Made by a program: the position numbers and the translations under genes
Part shown: positions 2,698 through 9,404 of the stretch, piece by piece
How positions within the stretch are numbered: the first letter of the stretch is position 1
Layout: each line of letters opens with the position of its first letter
Virus record (IMG/VR): IMGVR_UViG_3300042923_001201
Span: 1-64,000 of that record
DNA: 64,000 nucleotides
Direction: 5' to 3' (one strand)
Source: a virus
The notes under the pieces: model-generated
What the model saw: the letters and a program-made list of their open reading frames with translations, nothing else
Told to the model about the DNA's origin: nothing
Database searches by the model: none

Positions 2698-3147
2698 TTA
2701 GTTCACCTTAATAGCTTCAGCAACAATTTCTTTAATTACACTTCCATCAGCCTTACCTTTTAGCATAGGTGATACAATTTTCATAACTGAACCAATATTA
2801 ACAGGAACTGTATTTATTTTAAGGAACTCAATCGTCCCATCTACAATTGCCTTAACGTCATCTTTAGACATTGGTTTAGGCAAATAAGATGCAATCAAAT
2901 TTTCACTTTCTAGCAGTTGTGCAATTTTTTCACCATTTTGAACCTTATAGAAAGCATCAAACTCTTCCTTCAGTTCAGATTTAAACTTTTGACCAATTTC
3001 AACAATTTCAGAATCAGTAAGATCACGCTTTAGATCTTTAGCCTTGCCTTGAATACGGCTAATAAACATGCGTAGAGTGGAAACTGTATTTTTATCCTTA
3101 TTTCTCATTGCCTGTTTCATGTCTTCTTGAATTTTGTTCAACATCAT
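2698..3147 (-). CDS. yqeY: GatB/YqeY domain protein
   Basis: LNKIQEDMKQAMRNKDK..STLRM, YLPKPMS, IGSVMK..LKGKADGS signature; start reassigned to the ATG behind GAGGAG. Confidence 0.85.
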   Translation of the reverse strand: MMLNKIQEDMKQAMRNKDKNTVSTLRMFISRIQGKAKDLKRDLTDSEIVEIGQKFKSELKEEFDAFYKVQNGEKIAQLLESENLIASYLPKPMSKDDVKAIVDGTIEFLKINTVPVNIGSVMKIVSPMLKGKADGSVIKEIVAEAIKVN

Positions 3148-3157
3148 TATCTCTCCT

Positions 3158-3316
3158 CTATATAAAATAGACTGCAATCGTAAACAAAATAGAAATAAAT
3201 GACAAAGAAGCAAATATAGGAGTTAAATTAAACATTTTTGACTTTACAGGAAATCCACATGAAAGACCTGTCATAAATGATAAGAACAATGATAAAAATG
3301 AAAATAAAGAAAACAT
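3158..3316 (-). CDS. small membrane protein, 52 aa
   Basis: MFSLFSFLSLFLSF...ISILFTIAVYFI, two hydrophobic segments; AAAGGA RBS. Confidence 0.5.
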   Translation of the reverse strand: MFSLFSFLSLFLSFMTGLSCGFPVKSKMFNLTPIFASLSFISILFTIAVYFI

Positions 3317-3347: not shown

Positions 3348-3448
3348 AGCGGAAGTGAGGATTCGAACCTCAAACTCTTTCCTCTTATCGGAGGCTTATC
3401 TCATAGAGACCCTGGAAGGGGCGTGTTTTACCATTAAACTACTGCCGC
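3348..3448 (-). tRNA. tRNA-Gly(TCC)-like RNA with a ~30-nt insertion after the anticodon arm
   Basis: GCGGCAG-TA-GTTT-AATGGTA-AAAC...CTTCCAG...TGAGG-TTCGAAT-CCTCA-CTTCCGC-T. D arm, T arm and U73 are Gly-like; the anticodon stem is imperfect; no CCA. Confidence 0.65.
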
Positions 3449-3759: not shown

Positions 3760-4224
3760 TCATTGGTAATCACTCAACCTTTCTTGAAAATTTTGTAAAC
3801 TCATACCTTTCTTTTTCTTTTTCTTGGTATAAGTGCCATATTCTTTATAAACAGTTTTTAACTCATAGGCCTCTGACGCATAATCAAAAAGACATGAGGC
3901 AATTTTTGTTACAGATGTATCATAATACACCGCAAAGTATGCTAACTTCTGCCACCAAATATTTGTCAGTCTTATACCCAAAACAGTTACAGCTTCGTCA
4001 TTCCTTCTCATAGTTAAGCTTTCTAATCTACTTGAAATTATTTCATGAATTAAAACATCACTTAAATCACCTAAGCACCTTACTATAAACTGTTCACCGA
4101 CAAACATCATAGAGAGATGATATTCAACACAAGAGAGCCTAAAGTTTTTCTTCCTACTTGAACTTATCCAAATTTTTACTGGAAACTTTTTGTCAACTCT
4201 TACCTGCGATATGATGCACCACAT
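3760..4224 (-). CDS. putative DNA-binding protein, possibly tandem ribbon-helix-helix
   Basis: Two strand-helix-helix-like repeats (FPVKIWISSSRKKNFR...; VLGIRLTNIWWQKLAYFA..TSVTKIASCLF). Confidence 0.45.
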   Translation of the reverse strand: MWCIISQVRVDKKFPVKIWISSSRKKNFRLSCVEYHLSMMFVGEQFIVRCLGDLSDVLIHEIISSRLESLTMRRNDEAVTVLGIRLTNIWWQKLAYFAVYYDTSVTKIASCLFDYASEAYELKTVYKEYGTYTKKKKKKGMSLQNFQERLSDYQ

Positions 4225-4303: not shown

Positions 4304-4413
4304 CCATTTCCGATGGTAAACCATGAAGGTGGTATAATGTTCCTTCTGGTACCATGGTCCATTATGGAAACGACCAAAATGGAACTATTTCCCAAATTGG
4401 CACCATGTTCCAT
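4304..4413. repeat. degenerate tandem 15-18-bp repeats (TGGNACYATKKYCC), candidate operator/centromere
   Basis: TGGTACCATGGTCC, TGGAAACGACC, TGGAACTATTTCCC and TGGCACCATGTTCC in tandem at the divergent transcription point. Confidence 0.45.
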
Positions 4414-4432
4414 AATTTATTTACCTGAGTAG

Positions 4433-4461
4433 TTTACAGTCTTAAATTTTCTATGTATAAT
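4433..4461 (+). promoter_or_regulatory. sigmaA-like promoter
   Basis: TTTACA-17 bp-TATAAT. Confidence 0.7.
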
Positions 4462-4473
4462 GTAACTATAACA

Positions 4474-4893
4474 GAAAAGTATTTGGTGAGAGTTGGAAGC
4501 TGAGTCTTAACACCGTTATCAAATAAAGACCAAGGTTAGCTGAGCCGATGCCGCAGTACCAGTCAGCAGTTGCACAGCAACTTCCACTAGGACAAGTGGG
4601 ATTTGTAGTTTGTGTGATGTGGTGGGTTTGGAGATCGTTCCCACATTAATAAAAAATGAACGGAGGACCTGAATTTGTAAATTCATTTGAGATTGTATTG
4701 GCCGGGGTGGTACAATCAAGAATTTACAAATTACCGGCTAGCTAGTGGTTAGTTATACTTATTTCTAGATACTACCTATACTGTAAAATGAATTGTAACC
4801 GTTACCGAACTAATCTGAAAGATTAGTGAGGAACCAAACTGAAAAGTTTGGTGAATGCCAGATAGAGTTTACGTACAATAAAATAAATATTTC
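4474..4893 (+). ncRNA. large structured RNA or structured 5' leader of unknown class
   Basis: No credible ORF. At least 7 hairpins, including a perfect 13-bp IR (4672-4684/4720-4732), pseudoknot-type pairing TGGCCGG/CCGGCTA, a GAAA-tetraloop stem (4833-4852) and 5'/3' end complementarity. Confidence 0.6.
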
Positions 4894-4920: not shown

Positions 4921-5025
4921 ATGGGAATTAATGACAGTGATGCAATAGGTGTGTTAACGGTACTTACTGGTATAGCTACATTTATATTTGGTTTAGGTTT
5001 TGTTGTAGGAGCACTCATTTTTTAA
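4921..5025 (+). CDS. 34-aa single-pass membrane peptide
   Basis: GGAGGTG RBS; MGINDSDAIGVLTVLTGIATFIFGLGFVVGALIF. Confidence 0.65.
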   Translation: MGINDSDAIGVLTVLTGIATFIFGLGFVVGALIF

Positions 5026-5044
5026 TGGGTGCTTTCTTTTTTTT
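5009..5044 (+). terminator. intrinsic terminator
   Basis: GAGCACTCATT/AATGGGTGCTT stem followed by a T run. Confidence 0.75.
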
Positions 5045-5061
5045 AAGAATTTGAGTAACTT

Positions 5062-5094
5062 GGTTTACAAAGTCTTACATTACTGACATATTAT
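5062..5094 (+). promoter_or_regulatory. putative late promoter GGTTTACA-17-CATATTAT
   Basis: The same motif recurs at 14095 and 21303, each directly after a terminator. Confidence 0.55.
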
Positions 5095-5133: not shown

Positions 5134-5289
5134 ATGAAAACTAAACTTTGTGATAGCTGTAATTCACCTATTATAAAGGTTAAAAAGGGTACTCGCGTAT
5201 CCATGGAATGTTCCTACTGTGGTAAGGTTAGCGAAAAGGGTGCAGAAATATCGGACTTTCTTCCAGAATACGCCGGTGATGATGAGTGA
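5134..5289 (+). CDS. small Zn-ribbon protein, 51 aa
   Basis: AGGAGG RBS; CDSC...CSYC; stop overlaps the HNH start. Confidence 0.65.
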   Translation: MKTKLCDSCNSPIIKVKKGTRVSMECSYCGKVSEKGAEISDFLPEYAGDDE

Positions 5290-5648
5290 GGAAAAAAATT
5301 TGCTCATGCGGTAAAATAATACCTGATAATGCTTCTTGTTTATGTAAAAGAGCTAAAAAGCGCGATTATATGAGAGAGTATCAGCGAAACGATAAAGATA
5401 ATCCTTTGAAAACCACAAAGTGGAAACATTTTAGAAATAATATCTTACGAAGAGATAAATACTTATGTCAAAGATGCTTATTTAAGTATGGAATTGTAAA
5501 TTCAAAAGATTTACAAGCTCATCACATCAAGTCCAGGAAAAATTATCCTGAACTAGTTTTTGATGTTAAGAATGTTATTTGTCTTTGCAGGACCTGTAAC
5601 CTTCAATTGGGCACAAAGGATGCTTTAGACTTTGAAGTTCGTAGATAG
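5286..5648 (+). CDS. terminase-associated HNH endonuclease (HK97 gp74-like)
   Basis: W..FR..IL.RD.YLCQRC...AHHIK...N.ICLCRTCN; directly upstream of the terminase genes. Confidence 0.85.
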   Translation: MRKKICSCGKIIPDNASCLCKRAKKRDYMREYQRNDKDNPLKTTKWKHFRNNILRRDKYLCQRCLFKYGIVNSKDLQAHHIKSRKNYPELVFDVKNVICLCRTCNLQLGTKDALDFEVRR

Positions 5649-5828: not shown

Positions 5829-6332
5829 ATGGCTCGACAAAAGAAGCCAGCCTCATTAAAAGCAGGTAAATCTGAAACAAAAGAACAATTAGCAGTTCGT
5901 GAAGAAATTGAAAAGCAATTGTTAGGTGGAACCGACAAAATTGCAACTGTTCCATCTCATTTAAATGATTTGGCACAAGTATATTATCAATTTCTTGTTA
6001 ACGAACTTGAAATTGGTGGTCTTTTGTCAAATTTGGATATACCATTGCTTGAACAAACTGCAGACACACTTAGCAAGATAAGAGAATGTGACTCTGCATT
6101 GAATCAACAAGGGCTGGTATTATCAGGAGTGGACAGATACGGACATGATTATGCTAAGGAAAATCCGTATGTAAAGATTAAAATGGGTTACCTCAATCAG
6201 TTCAGGAACTTGGCCAACCAATTAGGTTTGTCGCCATCATCTCGTGCTGCATTAGCAAGCAAAAAGATTGATAAACAAGCTGAAGAGGAAGATCCATTGT
6301 TAAAGGTCTTGCGCGGAGAATCAATAGATTAA
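5829..6332 (+). CDS. terS: terminase small subunit (P27 family)
   Basis: MARQKKP..., P.HL, ENPY, QLGLSPSSRA motifs. Confidence 0.9.
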   Translation: MARQKKPASLKAGKSETKEQLAVREEIEKQLLGGTDKIATVPSHLNDLAQVYYQFLVNELEIGGLLSNLDIPLLEQTADTLSKIRECDSALNQQGLVLSGVDRYGHDYAKENPYVKIKMGYLNQFRNLANQLGLSPSSRAALASKKIDKQAEEEDPLLKVLRGESID

Positions 6333-6350: not shown

Positions 6351-8054
6351 ATGGATATAAAAACTCACAAAGCCTACCAATATGCTGAAGCCGTCGTTAG
6401 TGGTAAAATCGCAACTAGTAAATACGTAAAAAAGCAGTGTCAAAAATTCTTCAAAGACCTTGAAGATCCTGATTGTAAATTCTTTATTGATGAAAAAGAC
6501 GTAGAGAAGATTACAATGCTAACGAAGTTGATTAATATGGCATCAGGACCTGCTGCAGGTAAACCCGCACATGACGCTTTAGCAGGCTTTCAATGGTTCT
6601 TTATAATTAATGCTTTGTGTTGGAAACATAAGACTAATTCGGAAAAAAGACGCTATGAGAAATCTGTATTGCTCATTGCCCGTAAATCAGGAAAATCATT
6701 CTTAGTGGGCCTTATCTTTATTATCCTACTATTAATTGAACCACAGTTTTCAGAATTTTACTCTGTTGCTCCTGACCGCGAACTTTCTTCAATTGTTAAA
6801 AAAGAGTTAGAGCAAATGATTTCATCGTCTCCTCTAATTTCAAAGCACTTTCAGACTACAAGAGCTGAAACAAGGTGCTTGGCAACAAAGAGTAAGTTTG
6901 TACCACTGGCAACATCTGAAAACCGAATGGATGGACGGAAAGCAAACGTATTCGTAGCCGACGAAGTCGGAGCACTAAGAAACAGATATCCAATTGATGC
7001 CATGCAATCATCTCAGATGAATATGATTAACCGTACTGGCATACTTATTTCAACAGCATATGAATCTTTAAATAACCCTATGACTGAAGAAATGGAATAT
7101 TGTGAAAAAGTTCTTGATGGAATTATTGACGATGAGGAAACATTTGCCTTACTTTATAAACCAGATGATAGTAAAGATTGGTTGAGTGATAAATCACTTA
7201 TCGAAGCAAATCCACTTATTGTTGACGTTCCTGAGAACTATGATTATCTTGTTAAGCAACGTAAAACAGCAATAGAAATGCCTGGTTCTAAAAAGAACTT
7301 TTTAACAAAGCATATGAACATATTCGTTGATGGAGACGATTCAGAAGTATATGTCTCAACCGACGATTTAAGAAAGTGTAAAATTGATAGTTTCGATTGG
7401 CGTGGCAAAGCCGTATATCTCGGCCTTGACTTGTCGCTTTCAAACGATAATACAGCTGTTAATATGACTCATTATGATTTTGAAACTAAAACATTTTATG
7501 CAAAGACTTGGGCGTTTATACCAAATGAAGGTGTAGACAATAAGTCAAAAATTGAAAAAATTGATTATAGAATGATGGCCGAAAATAAATACGCCTTCCT
7601 CTGCGGTGATCGGATTATTAGTTATAAGTTCGTTGAGGACTTTATACTTAAACTCGAAGAAGCATATGGTGTAAATATCAAAGGCATTGGCTATGATAAG
7701 TATAACGCTGTTTCATCTGTAAATAGATTGGCAGAAGAAGGAAACTATGATGTAATTGAGATTAAGCAACACTCAGGCACATTGCATCCTGCTACAAAAC
7801 TTCTTAAAGAGTCTATTCTTGAAGAAAAATTTGCGTATGAACAAAACAGACTATACGAAATCAACTTTTCAAACGCTCGTGAAGTTAGGGATACTAACCT
7901 TAACAGTTATATAAATAAGAAAAAATCAACAGGTAAAGTCGATATGGTCGCGGCAACAATAAACTCGATAGTACTTTGGATTCAAGAGATTGAAGAAGGT
8001 ACGAGTGTTTATGATAGAGATAGTCGCGAAGAAGAGGCCTTTATCTTCCTATAA
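6351..8054 (+). CDS. terL: terminase large subunit
   Basis: Walker A IARKSGKS, Walker B FVADE, nuclease GLDLS...D and KVDMVAA. Confidence 0.95.
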   Translation: MDIKTHKAYQYAEAVVSGKIATSKYVKKQCQKFFKDLEDPDCKFFIDEKDVEKITMLTKLINMASGPAAGKPAHDALAGFQWFFIINALCWKHKTNSEKRRYEKSVLLIARKSGKSFLVGLIFIILLLIEPQFSEFYSVAPDRELSSIVKKELEQMISSSPLISKHFQTTRAETRCLATKSKFVPLATSENRMDGRKANVFVADEVGALRNRYPIDAMQSSQMNMINRTGILISTAYESLNNPMTEEMEYCEKVLDGIIDDEETFALLYKPDDSKDWLSDKSLIEANPLIVDVPENYDYLVKQRKTAIEMPGSKKNFLTKHMNIFVDGDDSEVYVSTDDLRKCKIDSFDWRGKAVYLGLDLSLSNDNTAVNMTHYDFETKTFYAKTWAFIPNEGVDNKSKIEKIDYRMMAENKYAFLCGDRIISYKFVEDFILKLEEAYGVNIKGIGYDKYNAVSSVNRLAEEGNYDVIEIKQHSGTLHPATKLLKESILEEKFAYEQNRLYEINFSNAREVRDTNLNSYINKKKSTGKVDMVAATINSIVLWIQEIEEGTSVYDRDSREEEAFIFL

Positions 8055-8069
8055 GAGAGGAGGAGAATT

Positions 8070-9404
8070 GTGGGATTATTTGACCGTTTTAGTTCAAAAA
8101 AAGCAAAAGAAGATAGAAGTATAGTGAGTTATTCTGGTGCTACGTCTACTGGAACAATTTTTTCTATGTTTTCAACAGCTACCGCAATTACGGAAGAACA
8201 AGCTATGAAAATTCCATCAGTTGTTGCTTGTACAGAGTTAATTAGTGGTTCTATAGCACAATTACCTATCTATCTCTATAGAGAAAACGAACAAGGCGAA
8301 GTTGAAAGAGTACCTAACGATAATCGAGTTTTTCTTCTTAATAGTGAACCAAACGATATGTTGAACGGTTTTAACTTTAAAAAGAAAATAATTAAGGACT
8401 ATTTGTTTTATGGTGTTAGTTACACAAAGAAAGAAATGGATAGGAATAATATATTAGAGCTCCATGCTCTTGATATGAATAATGTTCAGGTAACTAAGTA
8501 TATCATAGATGGATATAAGTTTGATGCTGATGTAAAGCTAACATATACAGGTGCAGACGATAACCATAAACAAAAAGTATTTAAACCTCACGAACTGATC
8601 ATGGTAACTCGCGATAGTGAAGATGGATTCACAGGTAGAGGCATACTTAATTCTGGTACAGATTTACTTCAGTTAGCTATAAATGAAATTGAGTATAGTT
8701 CAAACGTTCTTAAAAATGGCGCATTGCCTATTGGTGTGATTGAAACTGCTGCTAAACTATCAGAGACTGCAATTAAACGCTTACGCGCAGGTTGGGAAAC
8801 TCTATATGGTGGTTCGAAGAATGCTGGTAAAACAGTAATTCTTGAAGAAGGTCTTTCATATAAACCAATAAGTTTAAAACCTAATGATATGCAACTAAAT
8901 GACAGCAAAAAGGTAACTATTGCTGAAATTGCAAGACTATTTAATGTTCCTGAGAGTATGCTAAATGCTGATGCAAACAAATACGCTTCCAATGAACAAA
9001 ATAATCTACACTTCCTACAATATACACTGGCTCCGATAATTACATCATTAGAGTCAGCTCTTGACAAATCACTCCTTTTGGAAGAAGAAAAGCAAGCAGG
9101 ATATTATTTCCGCTGCGATGTTAGTGAAATTCTTCGTACAACTGAAAAGGAAAAAATTGAATCAGCCACACTGGGACTGAGTAAAGGAATCTTCTCGATG
9201 AATGAAACTCGCTCCAAATTTGACATGCACAAACTCAAAGACGATTACTTTATTTGGTCGTTAGGTAATGTATTGTTTAATCCTGCTACAGGTGAGATTA
9301 TTGTACCTAACATGCAAGGTAGTGCTGATTTAGATGATCCTATAAGTTCCCAAAATGTGAACAATGTTAAACAGCCAGTAAACAAGGGCAAAGGAGGTGA
9401 GTAG
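8070..9404 (+). CDS. HK97-family portal protein
   Basis: AMKIPSVVAC, NAGKTVILEEGL, EIARLFNVP motifs. Confidence 0.95.
   Translation: MGLFDRFSSKKAKEDRSIVSYSGATSTGTIFSMFSTATAITEEQAMKIPSVVACTELISGSIAQLPIYLYRENEQGEVERVPNDNRVFLLNSEPNDMLNGFNFKKKIIKDYLFYGVSYTKKEMDRNNILELHALDMNNVQVTKYIIDGYKFDADVKLTYTGADDNHKQKVFKPHELIMVTRDSEDGFTGRGILNSGTDLLQLAINEIEYSSNVLKNGALPIGVIETAAKLSETAIKRLRAGWETLYGGSKNAGKTVILEEGLSYKPISLKPNDMQLNDSKKVTIAEIARLFNVPESMLNADANKYASNEQNNLHFLQYTLAPIITSLESALDKSLLLEEEKQAGYYFRCDVSEILRTTEKEKIESATLGLSKGIFSMNETRSKFDMHKLKDDYFIWSLGNVLFNPATGEIIVPNMQGSADLDDPISSQNVNNVKQPVNKGKGGE

Follow-up and report, generated by a model that had tools for sequence, protein, structure and literature searches.

A structured RNA tract beside the packaging genes

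The DNA analyzed here, referred to as the window, comprises the first 64 kb (64,000 nt) of the 94,472-nt phage record IMGVR_UViG_3300042923_001201, which is rated complete and has a G+C content of 34.8%. Among sequencing runs, a soil metagenome, perhaps the source of this DNA, is the only one that contains it in full, and no RNA run with it is listed. The element under study is a promoter-driven RNA that sits in a 700-nt gap. Its left neighbor is a leftward gene (3760-4224), and to its right follows the rightward late module in the order 34-aa open reading frame (ORF), Lar-like zinc ribbon, HNH endonuclease (5286-5648), small terminase (terS, 5829-6332), large terminase (terL, 6351-8054), portal, protease and capsid. 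A first-pass annotation, made from the sequence alone, had proposed a new large structured phage noncoding RNA (ncRNA) with its own promoter in this gap. The proposal has held: homologues exist, their helices covary, the fold lies on the promoter strand and no Rfam family matches. It is very probable that the tract represents a real structured RNA family.

The promoter was found as annotated. Transcription is predicted to start near 4468, with a folded core from ~4468 to ~4856 (~390 nt), and a transcript ending at the terminator described below would measure ~580 nt. The promoter and the modules of the RNA are listed here.

4433-4461 (+): sigma-A-type promoter, TTTACA-17-TATAAT, 11 of 12 consensus matches
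4485-4538 (+): 5' H-type pseudoknot domain, in which 4485-88 pairs with 4511-14 (P1) and 4504-08 with 4526-30 (P2)
4539-4567 (+): hairpin H3, GCUGA/UCAGC (4539-43/4563-67), with the conserved loop word GCCGAUGC
4568-4601 (+): two short hairpins, AGUUGC/GCAACU (4568-73/4577-82) and UCCACU/AGUGGG (4583-88/4595-4600), phage-specific
4616-4669 (+): P5-like hairpin GUGGG (4622-26)/CCCAC (4640-44), followed by an A-rich run and by the purine block GGAGG (4662-66), which is conserved
4672-4732 (+): P7 hairpin, consisting of an outer 13-bp stem (4672-84/4720-32, repeat I4), an asymmetric internal loop, an inner 7-bp stem (4691-97/4711-17) and a 13-nt loop (4698-4710)
4698-4741 (+): P8 pseudoknot, in which the loop segment UUGGCCGG (4698-4705) pairs with CCGGCUAG (4734-4741), 16 nt after the inner stem; 8 pairs
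4745-4808 (+): joining region with the semi-conserved word GUGGUUAGUUAUACUU (4745-60)
4809-4856 (+): 3' module with twin hairpins, one at 4809-27 and one at 4833-52, and GAGGA between them; conserved word UGAGGAAC

All helices named in the first-pass annotation (GGTG/CACC, GCTGA/TCAGC, AGTTGC/GCAACT, TCCACT/AGTGGG, GTGGG/CCCAC, the long hairpin and the twin hairpins) can be read at these places. Three unpaired words of the 5' domain, AAGCUGAG (4497-4504), UUAUCAAAUA (4516-25) and CCAAGGUUA (4530-38), are near-invariant. A suggested pairing of the RNA ends (AAGTATTTG/TAAATATTT) finds no comparative support, and the minimum free energy (MFE) structure gives the 5' strand another partner. The MFE of the whole tract, compared with shuffled sequences, yields a z-score of -2.16 on the plus strand, where 5 of 100 shuffles were as good, and of -2.70 on the minus strand. 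Since the single-window fold lies near shuffle level, chance is not excludable from the window alone, and it is the comparative covariation that carries the proof.

Relatives and covariation of the fold

Short-word pattern scans, BLAST and the covariance models R1 and R2, both built on the 5' domain, yielded a sum of 13 members. The 12 relatives of the window RNA are carried by a clade of 80-97 kb Bacillota siphophages, and R1 and R2 score the 5' domain at 48-81 bits in relatives. The words AAGCTGAG, TTATCAAATA and CCAAGGTT are common to the window and the phages retrieved via the small terminase. The window RNA and L004 form one set. Another (L006 and L007, group C) has the 5' domain replaced and the remainder kept. 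Group B comprises seven sequences (L009, L013, L017, L023, L030, L179 and GR1), and further members are L190, located at the end of a 97.6-kb contig, and L159, from a 91-kb relative. Large terminase identity among these phages amounts to 65-80%, while the RNAs are barely alignable between sets, as is expected for an RNA kept by structure and not by sequence. The nearest cultured relatives by large terminase are Geobacillus phage GR1 (69%), the Andrewesvirinae Enterococcus phages VPE25 and vipetofem (~69%) and 6ec-like Staphylococcus phages. In GR1 (OK896991.1) the RNA copy occupies positions 153-479, where the public record has no feature annotated.

Phages retrieved via the small terminase show ORF-poor gaps at the same junction. 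The small terminase search returned 6 loci and a terL profile 41, most of them with too little upstream DNA to contain the RNA. The window tract had no BLASTN match among 50,697 phage records, and with the group B RNA as query GR1 was the sole match. A pattern scan of species genomes produced 32 matches, all of which were rejected as chance, including three near-identical ones from Clostridia inside a 1,283-aa ORF; no prophage copy was found in the species genomes with the strict pattern. The same kind of scan of the metagenome collection returned already known contigs only, and a second pattern based on the H3 loop added no new true member.

In the seven-sequence alignment of group B, RNAalifold predicted 74 pairs, and compensatory change is seen at 29 of these. 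An extended group B model that includes the pseudoknots comprises 81 pairs in 12 helices, with 94.2% of cells paired. Both-sided changes occur in 32 of the 81 pairs, a count reached by 0 of 500 shuffles, and sliding the partners by 1-3 columns gives 2-8. Every stem of the two H-type pseudoknots (P1/P2 and P7/P8) carries compensatory changes; these affect 5 of 6 pairs in H3 and 5 of 7 in P7, and P5 (helices 9 and 10) covaries as well. The H3 loop can pair with the 3' tail of group B over 6 bp (90% paired, one compensatory pair), and its tertiary partner is ambiguous. Group B also supports a long-range AGAAGC/GCUUUU helix, which has no convincing counterpart in the window. The long-range partner that RNAalifold proposed for the 5' strand of P1 was discarded; it is broken in L179 and L009, where the local P1 is compensated. 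The first-pass annotation had left its proposal to be checked by collecting homologues and examining covariation, and on both counts the outcome is favorable, with strong covariation of the helices.

P1, P2, H3 and P8 are kept between lineages with different sequences and constant spacing. Because the lengths of the intervening loops differ between lineages, MAFFT fails to align P1 and H3, and these helices were counted by script. The variants are as follows.

P1: GGUG/CACC (window, L004, L179), GGAG/CUCC, GCAG/CUGC
P2: GUCUU/AAGAC (window), GUUU/AAAC, GAGUU/AACUC, AAGUU/AACUU, ACAUUA/UAAUGU
H3: 11 different stems, nine among 11 tabulated members plus those of L190 and L159, with a conserved GCCGAUGC-type loop

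P2 reaches 88% pairing in the alignment of 11 sequences, with compensatory change at 3 of its 5 pairs. Outside these helices, conservation is uneven. The hairpins at 4568-4601 stand where group B has its long P4 hairpin, as judged by collinearity with alignment A5, and have no same-sequence counterpart in the relatives. The P5-like hairpin, A-rich run and GGAGG block have equivalents in L004 and L006, and L159 has a GAUGUG-type stem. Within P7 the inner stem is conserved, whereas the perfect 13-bp outer stem is specific to the window phage. Words similar to GUGGUUAGUUAUACUU follow P8 in L006/L007 and L190. At the 3' end, two hairpins of unrelated sequence flank the same GUGAGGAAC word in L004, L006 retains CUGAGGAAC and a hairpin, and group B has AGUGAGAA and a hairpin, followed by a terminator hairpin.

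The term pseudoknotted, used in the first-pass annotation, is borne out twice. GGTG/CACC is a stem of the covarying 5' H-type pseudoknot, and pairing of the P7 loop with its 3' flank occurs in every lineage with other sequences. In the window this complementarity amounts to 8 pairs (4698-4705/4734-4741), which 13 of 500 shuffles reach. Besides the window, P8 was seen in groups B and C, L190, L159 and L004, always laid out as a hairpin of 5-8 bp, a loop of 13-17 nt containing a GGYC-like word and a 3' partner; the linker measures 15-19 nt in most members and 27 and 34 nt in two. Group B P8 (helix 12) is 100% paired with 3 of 7 pairs compensatory, and comparison of L006 with L007 reveals a clean U-A to C-G exchange. 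In ten tabulated members P8 begins 220-290 nt into the extracted sequence, which indicates collinearity of the RNAs from end to end. The partner strand in the window lies one base past the foot of the P7 helix, which is ~22 bp long. As the 13-bp outer stem places this partner far from the loop, the outer part of P7 and an intramolecular P8 would hardly coexist; in the window phage they may either alternate, or P8 may pair two molecules, as the first-pass annotation had suggested.

Within the group B helices, 33 G-U/U-G cells stand against 7 A-C/C-A cells, and this excess indicates that the folding strand is the promoter strand. It is expected for an RNA on this strand, not for cruciforms or protein-bound palindromes, and thereby bears on the explanation that the tract works as DNA, for instance as a transcription-primed origin (ColE1 RNA II, T7/T4 type) or as a cos/pac region. 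Such an element would fit the location near the terminase genes at a divergent operon boundary, the presence in group B of a 60-190 nt A/T-rich tract, containing short direct repeats, 3' of the core, and the breaks that end several assembled contigs only a few kb away. However, a long A/T-rich tract of the kind that would mark an origin is missing from the window, L004, L006 and L159, the promoter lies on one strand, position and orientation relative to terS vary, and relatives with the same terminase do without the element. We therefore regard a DNA-level role as very unlikely.

The tract had also been described as ORF-free. This is accurate in the sense that it has no conserved ORF, and inaccurate in the literal sense, as ORFs of 33 and 29 aa are present on the plus strand and one of 66 aa on the minus strand. 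None of these short ORFs is conserved in the relatives, and a recurring TTG frame of group B is frameshifted between members and specifies unrelated peptides. Compensatory helices beyond the controls, on one strand and with no conserved ORF, are what is looked for in structured ncRNAs in general. Rfam 15 at gathering thresholds detected no family in the RNA, and its matches in the window were tRNAs elsewhere only. At E<=10, the best match in the RNA region reached 18.9 bits against a cutoff of 70. The loci of eight relatives likewise gave nothing in the RNA, the L030 RNA gave nothing meaningful at E<=10, and ARAGORN found no tRNA or tmRNA in the RNA region. The RNA thus matches none of the Rfam families, which include GOLLD, ROOL, HEARO, pRNA, riboswitches and small ribozymes; a confident match had been named in the first-pass annotation as a refutation. 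The statement that hallmarks of tmRNA, RNase P, signal recognition particle RNA and group I/II introns are missing is confirmed.

The tRNA cluster of the window lies at 14.1-14.7 kb and thus away from the RNA. On the minus strand at 3348-3448, Rfam reports a tRNA match of 101 nt and 42 bits where ARAGORN calls no tRNA. The match is consistent with a tRNA-like gene carrying an insertion, and a YqeY-domain gene (2698-3213) adjoins it.

Layout and distribution of the RNA cassette

The RNA is framed by the following features, and the order in the window is promoter, RNA, 34-aa ORF, terminator, second promoter and packaging genes.

4340-4420 (strand not assigned): operator-like repeats, TGGAAC/GTTCCAT words and GGTACCATGG-type words (repeats D1, I7 and I19), outside the RNA
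4921-5025 (+): ORF for a 34-aa hydrophobic peptide, ribosome-binding site GGAGGUG 7 nt before the ATG
5008-5045 (+): intrinsic terminator, 12-pair stem and T run
5064-5092 (+): second promoter, TTTACA-17-CATATT with TG, resembling the first promoter (repeat D9)

A TTTAC(A/G)-N16/17-TATAA(T/A) promoter lies ~20-50 nt 5' of the first helix in 11 of 11 members checked. With the window promoter as reference, look-alike sequences were found at two further sites of the genome, beyond the window at 69263-69293 and 72062-72092 (-), with 87% identity over 31 nt; these copies suggest a phage-specific promoter class. Just 5' of the RNA promoter, direct and inverted repeats are clustered at 4340-4420 (TGGTACCATGGTCCAT/TGGCACCATGTTCCAT; ATGGAAC/GTTCCAT). 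A phage regulator of the divergent promoters probably binds to this segment. The RNA transcript probably ends at the terminator 5008-5045, and the second promoter, judged by its sequence, can drive the packaging operon alone. The word TTTACAAAT is common to the 13-bp outer-stem repeat of P7 (4672-4684/4720-4732) and the -35 region of the second promoter (5064-5074), which may be a coincidence or may reflect a common protein-binding word.

The 34-aa ORF would be co-transcribed with the RNA only in the window phage, and the first-pass annotation had offered a regulatory leader for this peptide as one explanation of the tract. The window RNA would then be a long 5' untranslated region controlling a type I toxin-like or small membrane protein module. 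The strong ribosome-binding site fits this idea, as does the placement of the ORF between RNA and terminator, with its stop codon within the loop of the terminator hairpin. However, among the relatives read, no equivalent of the ORF is visible 3' of the RNA in L004, L006, group B members or L159, though the fold is conserved, and the peptide matches no Pfam or PHROG family. On the minus strand, two weak matches (9 of 12) to a promoter stayed within shuffle expectation. With a peptide in the window only and no convincing antisense promoter, the locus does not resemble a type I toxin-antitoxin system, and we rate the leader of a peptide lowest among the explanations considered.

In L030 the promoter and RNA are followed by an A-rich tract, a hairpin, a terminator analogous to that of the window (5603-5636), a second promoter and a gene without assigned function. 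In the group B relative L014, the corresponding gene precedes those for an ATP-dependent DNA ligase and a LysM/3D protein; the GR1 gene 3' of the RNA is annotated as ThiF-like, and its position matches that of the L014 ligase. The A-rich low-complexity tract of group B, highly variable in length (~60-190 nt) and with short direct repeats such as AAATTAAACATAT, lies between the RNA core and the 3' hairpin and terminator (L009 3700-4050; L030 5500-5575; equivalents in L017 and L013); it may be a linker, bind a protein or work as DNA. No clear terminator was seen after the RNA in L004 and L006.

In the window, L004 and L006/L007, the RNA and HNH-terS point the same way, with the RNA on the 5' side. 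In the opposite sense, heading a ligase operon, it is found in L190 and in L009, GR1, L017, L179 and L013, where group B orientation was counted only for copies that could be placed relative to terS or terL. In L159 the cassette is located between terL and portal (7700-8175); it has a promoter of its own, and another one precedes the portal gene. In sum, the RNA takes three positions and both orientations around the terminase genes. Its presence varies, too. R1 and R2 detected nothing in Enterococcus phage VPE25 and two IMG/VR genomes, all three of them complete relatives with terL 65-70% identical, nor in L146 (terL 76% identical), where operator-like repeats and promoter are kept and the RNA is absent; TGGAAC/GTTCCA-like words precede the equivalent promoter there as well (~950-1050). 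In the terS-terL gap of VPE25 (L182; 2780-3089), a tRNA (2979-3050, 56 bits) overlaps an opposite-strand 117-nt "hypothetical protein", and the gap contains other hairpin-rich sequence and no relative of the RNA.

Morons are promoter-gene-terminator cassettes between conserved genes, known from lambdoid and HK97 genomics. The RNA unit resembles them in its own promoter and terminator, its variable presence and insertion site and the retention of a separate promoter by the flanking operon, and differs from them in that the cargo is a structured RNA and not a protein gene. Judged by this layout, the promoter-RNA(-terminator) unit behaves as a self-contained accessory cassette, a moron with RNA cargo.

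The constant place behind a promoter also fits an RNA that acts in cis, as a transcription-control leader whose nascent transcript modifies the polymerase or gates a terminator, in the manner of put/EAR-type antitermination or of a large attenuator. The first helix always follows the strong promoter, and the RNA always heads an operon, as do HK022 putL/putR and Bacillus EAR, which lie directly behind the promoter at the head of a long operon. RNA and terminator stand between promoter and genes in the window and L030, and L030 has another terminator after the first downstream gene (6078-6096). The L006/L007 RNA forms the direct 5' leader of the next ORF, and in the RNA-less L146 the equivalent promoter drives the operon directly. 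On the other hand, four lineages have a second promoter 3' of the RNA (those of L030, L004 and L159 were read by eye, and that of L030 is missing from the scan list), so that downstream genes do not depend on read-through, L006/L007 excepted. The downstream operons differ as well (packaging genes, ligase operon, portal), and complete close relatives manage without the RNA. put elements are ~70 nt long with two hairpins, and EAR measures ~120 nt. The RNA family, with at least 12 helices and two to four pseudoknots, is ~five times larger. A cis-acting leader accordingly appears unlikely to us, though it deserves to be kept in mind.

Proximity to the packaging genes invites comparison with the phi29 packaging RNA (pRNA), likewise a promoter-driven structured phage RNA near packaging genes that has a loop with a complementary partner. 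The RNA would then serve packaging or head assembly, maybe as a multimer through the P7 loop and its complementary flank. All copies of known position lie within ~5 kb of terL, one of them between terL and portal, and the ~22 bp that the 13-bp outer stem puts between loop and P8 partner would make pairing between two molecules easier. However, the phage has a classical HNH-terS-terL system, and not the phi29 motor, according to the Pfam/PHROG matches of the window proteins, and no Rfam match was returned, pRNA included. In most members the distance between loop and partner is that of an ordinary H-type pseudoknot, which fits pairing within one molecule. The complete relatives without the RNA have similar terL proteins, so it is not essential to this packaging machine. 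A pRNA-like function is thus improbable.

The evidence leans, on balance, toward an autonomous accessory RNA gene of an uncatalogued family that acts in trans. Under this interpretation, the housekeeping-type promoter at 4433-4461 would start a transcript near 4468 that passes through the core and the 34-codon ORF and ends at 5008-5045. The RNA would fold into the 5' pseudoknot, H3, variable hairpins, the A-rich/GGAGG segment, the P7/P8 pseudoknot and the 3' hairpin pair, and the folded molecule would act in trans. The near-invariant words of the 5' domain and the H3 loop could form a binding site for a protein or small ligand, or an active site, and the RNA would bring an accessory benefit and not an essential step. 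Where the transcript ends, that it acts in trans and that its conserved loops bind a partner are deductions from sequence and layout.

Several observations weigh against this interpretation. There are only 13 members, some of them close relatives, so that shared descent accounts for part of the covariation counted. The canonical 5' pseudoknot is missing from group C, and the presumed functional core is therefore not universal. In L006/L007 the RNA runs directly into the ribosome-binding site of the next ORF, as a leader would, and terminator and second promoter were not seen. The presence of every copy at an operon head directly behind a promoter, with a terminator following in the window and L030, agrees with antitermination in cis too, and the clustering of all placeable copies around the terminase genes could indicate a packaging link.

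A more specific version of the accessory RNA gene is conceivable and, taken as a whole, unlikely. In it, the 5' pseudoknot would be the active site, either catalytic or binding a host factor or ligand, P8 could switch between an intramolecular form and a domain-swapped one that builds dimers or larger multimers as in ROOL/GOLLD, and the mobility of the cassette near the packaging genes would reflect a role at genome entry or in packaging, e.g., as a decoy against host defence.

Comparison with known RNAs and significance

The likeness to GOLLD, ROOL and pRNA that the first-pass annotation had drawn holds in kind only, as the Rfam models of these RNAs give no match at E<=10. ROOL measures ~580 nt and GOLLD ~800 nt. 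The core of the family described here is smaller (~330-390 nt), and the window RNA lies away from tRNA genes. Similar to it, ROOL (RF03087) and GOLLD (RF01998) are large, multi-helix, pseudoknotted, ORF-less and function-orphan RNAs of Bacillota phages and are variably present. ROOL and GOLLD form RNA-only multimers (bioRxiv 10.1101/2024.12.08.627333), and the window RNA shares with them loop complementarities that might link molecules.

A covariation-based survey of IMG/VR intergenic regions has reported 8,495 models of candidate structured RNAs (csRNAs) from phages and viruses, 29-151 nt in length (PMC10690425). None of them is described as a ~390-nt unit with multiple pseudoknots, a distinction made by description only, and individual hairpins of the window RNA may be among these models. 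The RNA therefore constitutes a new family within a known general category, that of orphan structured phage RNAs.

Few bacterial or phage RNAs exceed 300 nt and contain several pseudoknots, namely RNase P, tmRNA, group I/II introns, OLE, GOLLD, ROOL, HEARO and raiA. To our knowledge, each such large RNA proved to be a ribozyme, the core of a ribonucleoprotein or an unusual assembly. The family described here combines strong covariation with a highly conserved pseudoknot core that resembles a functional site, and its mobile accessory layout suggests a selectable benefit. One member resides in the cultured Geobacillus phage GR1, whose host is a cultivable strain-collection organism (G. stearothermophilus ATCC 10149), which makes the RNA experimentally tractable. 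For phage annotation it matters that, in this phage group, RNA genes can occupy the "empty" intergenic zone by the terminase genes, and the terminase-portal junction is another such slot.

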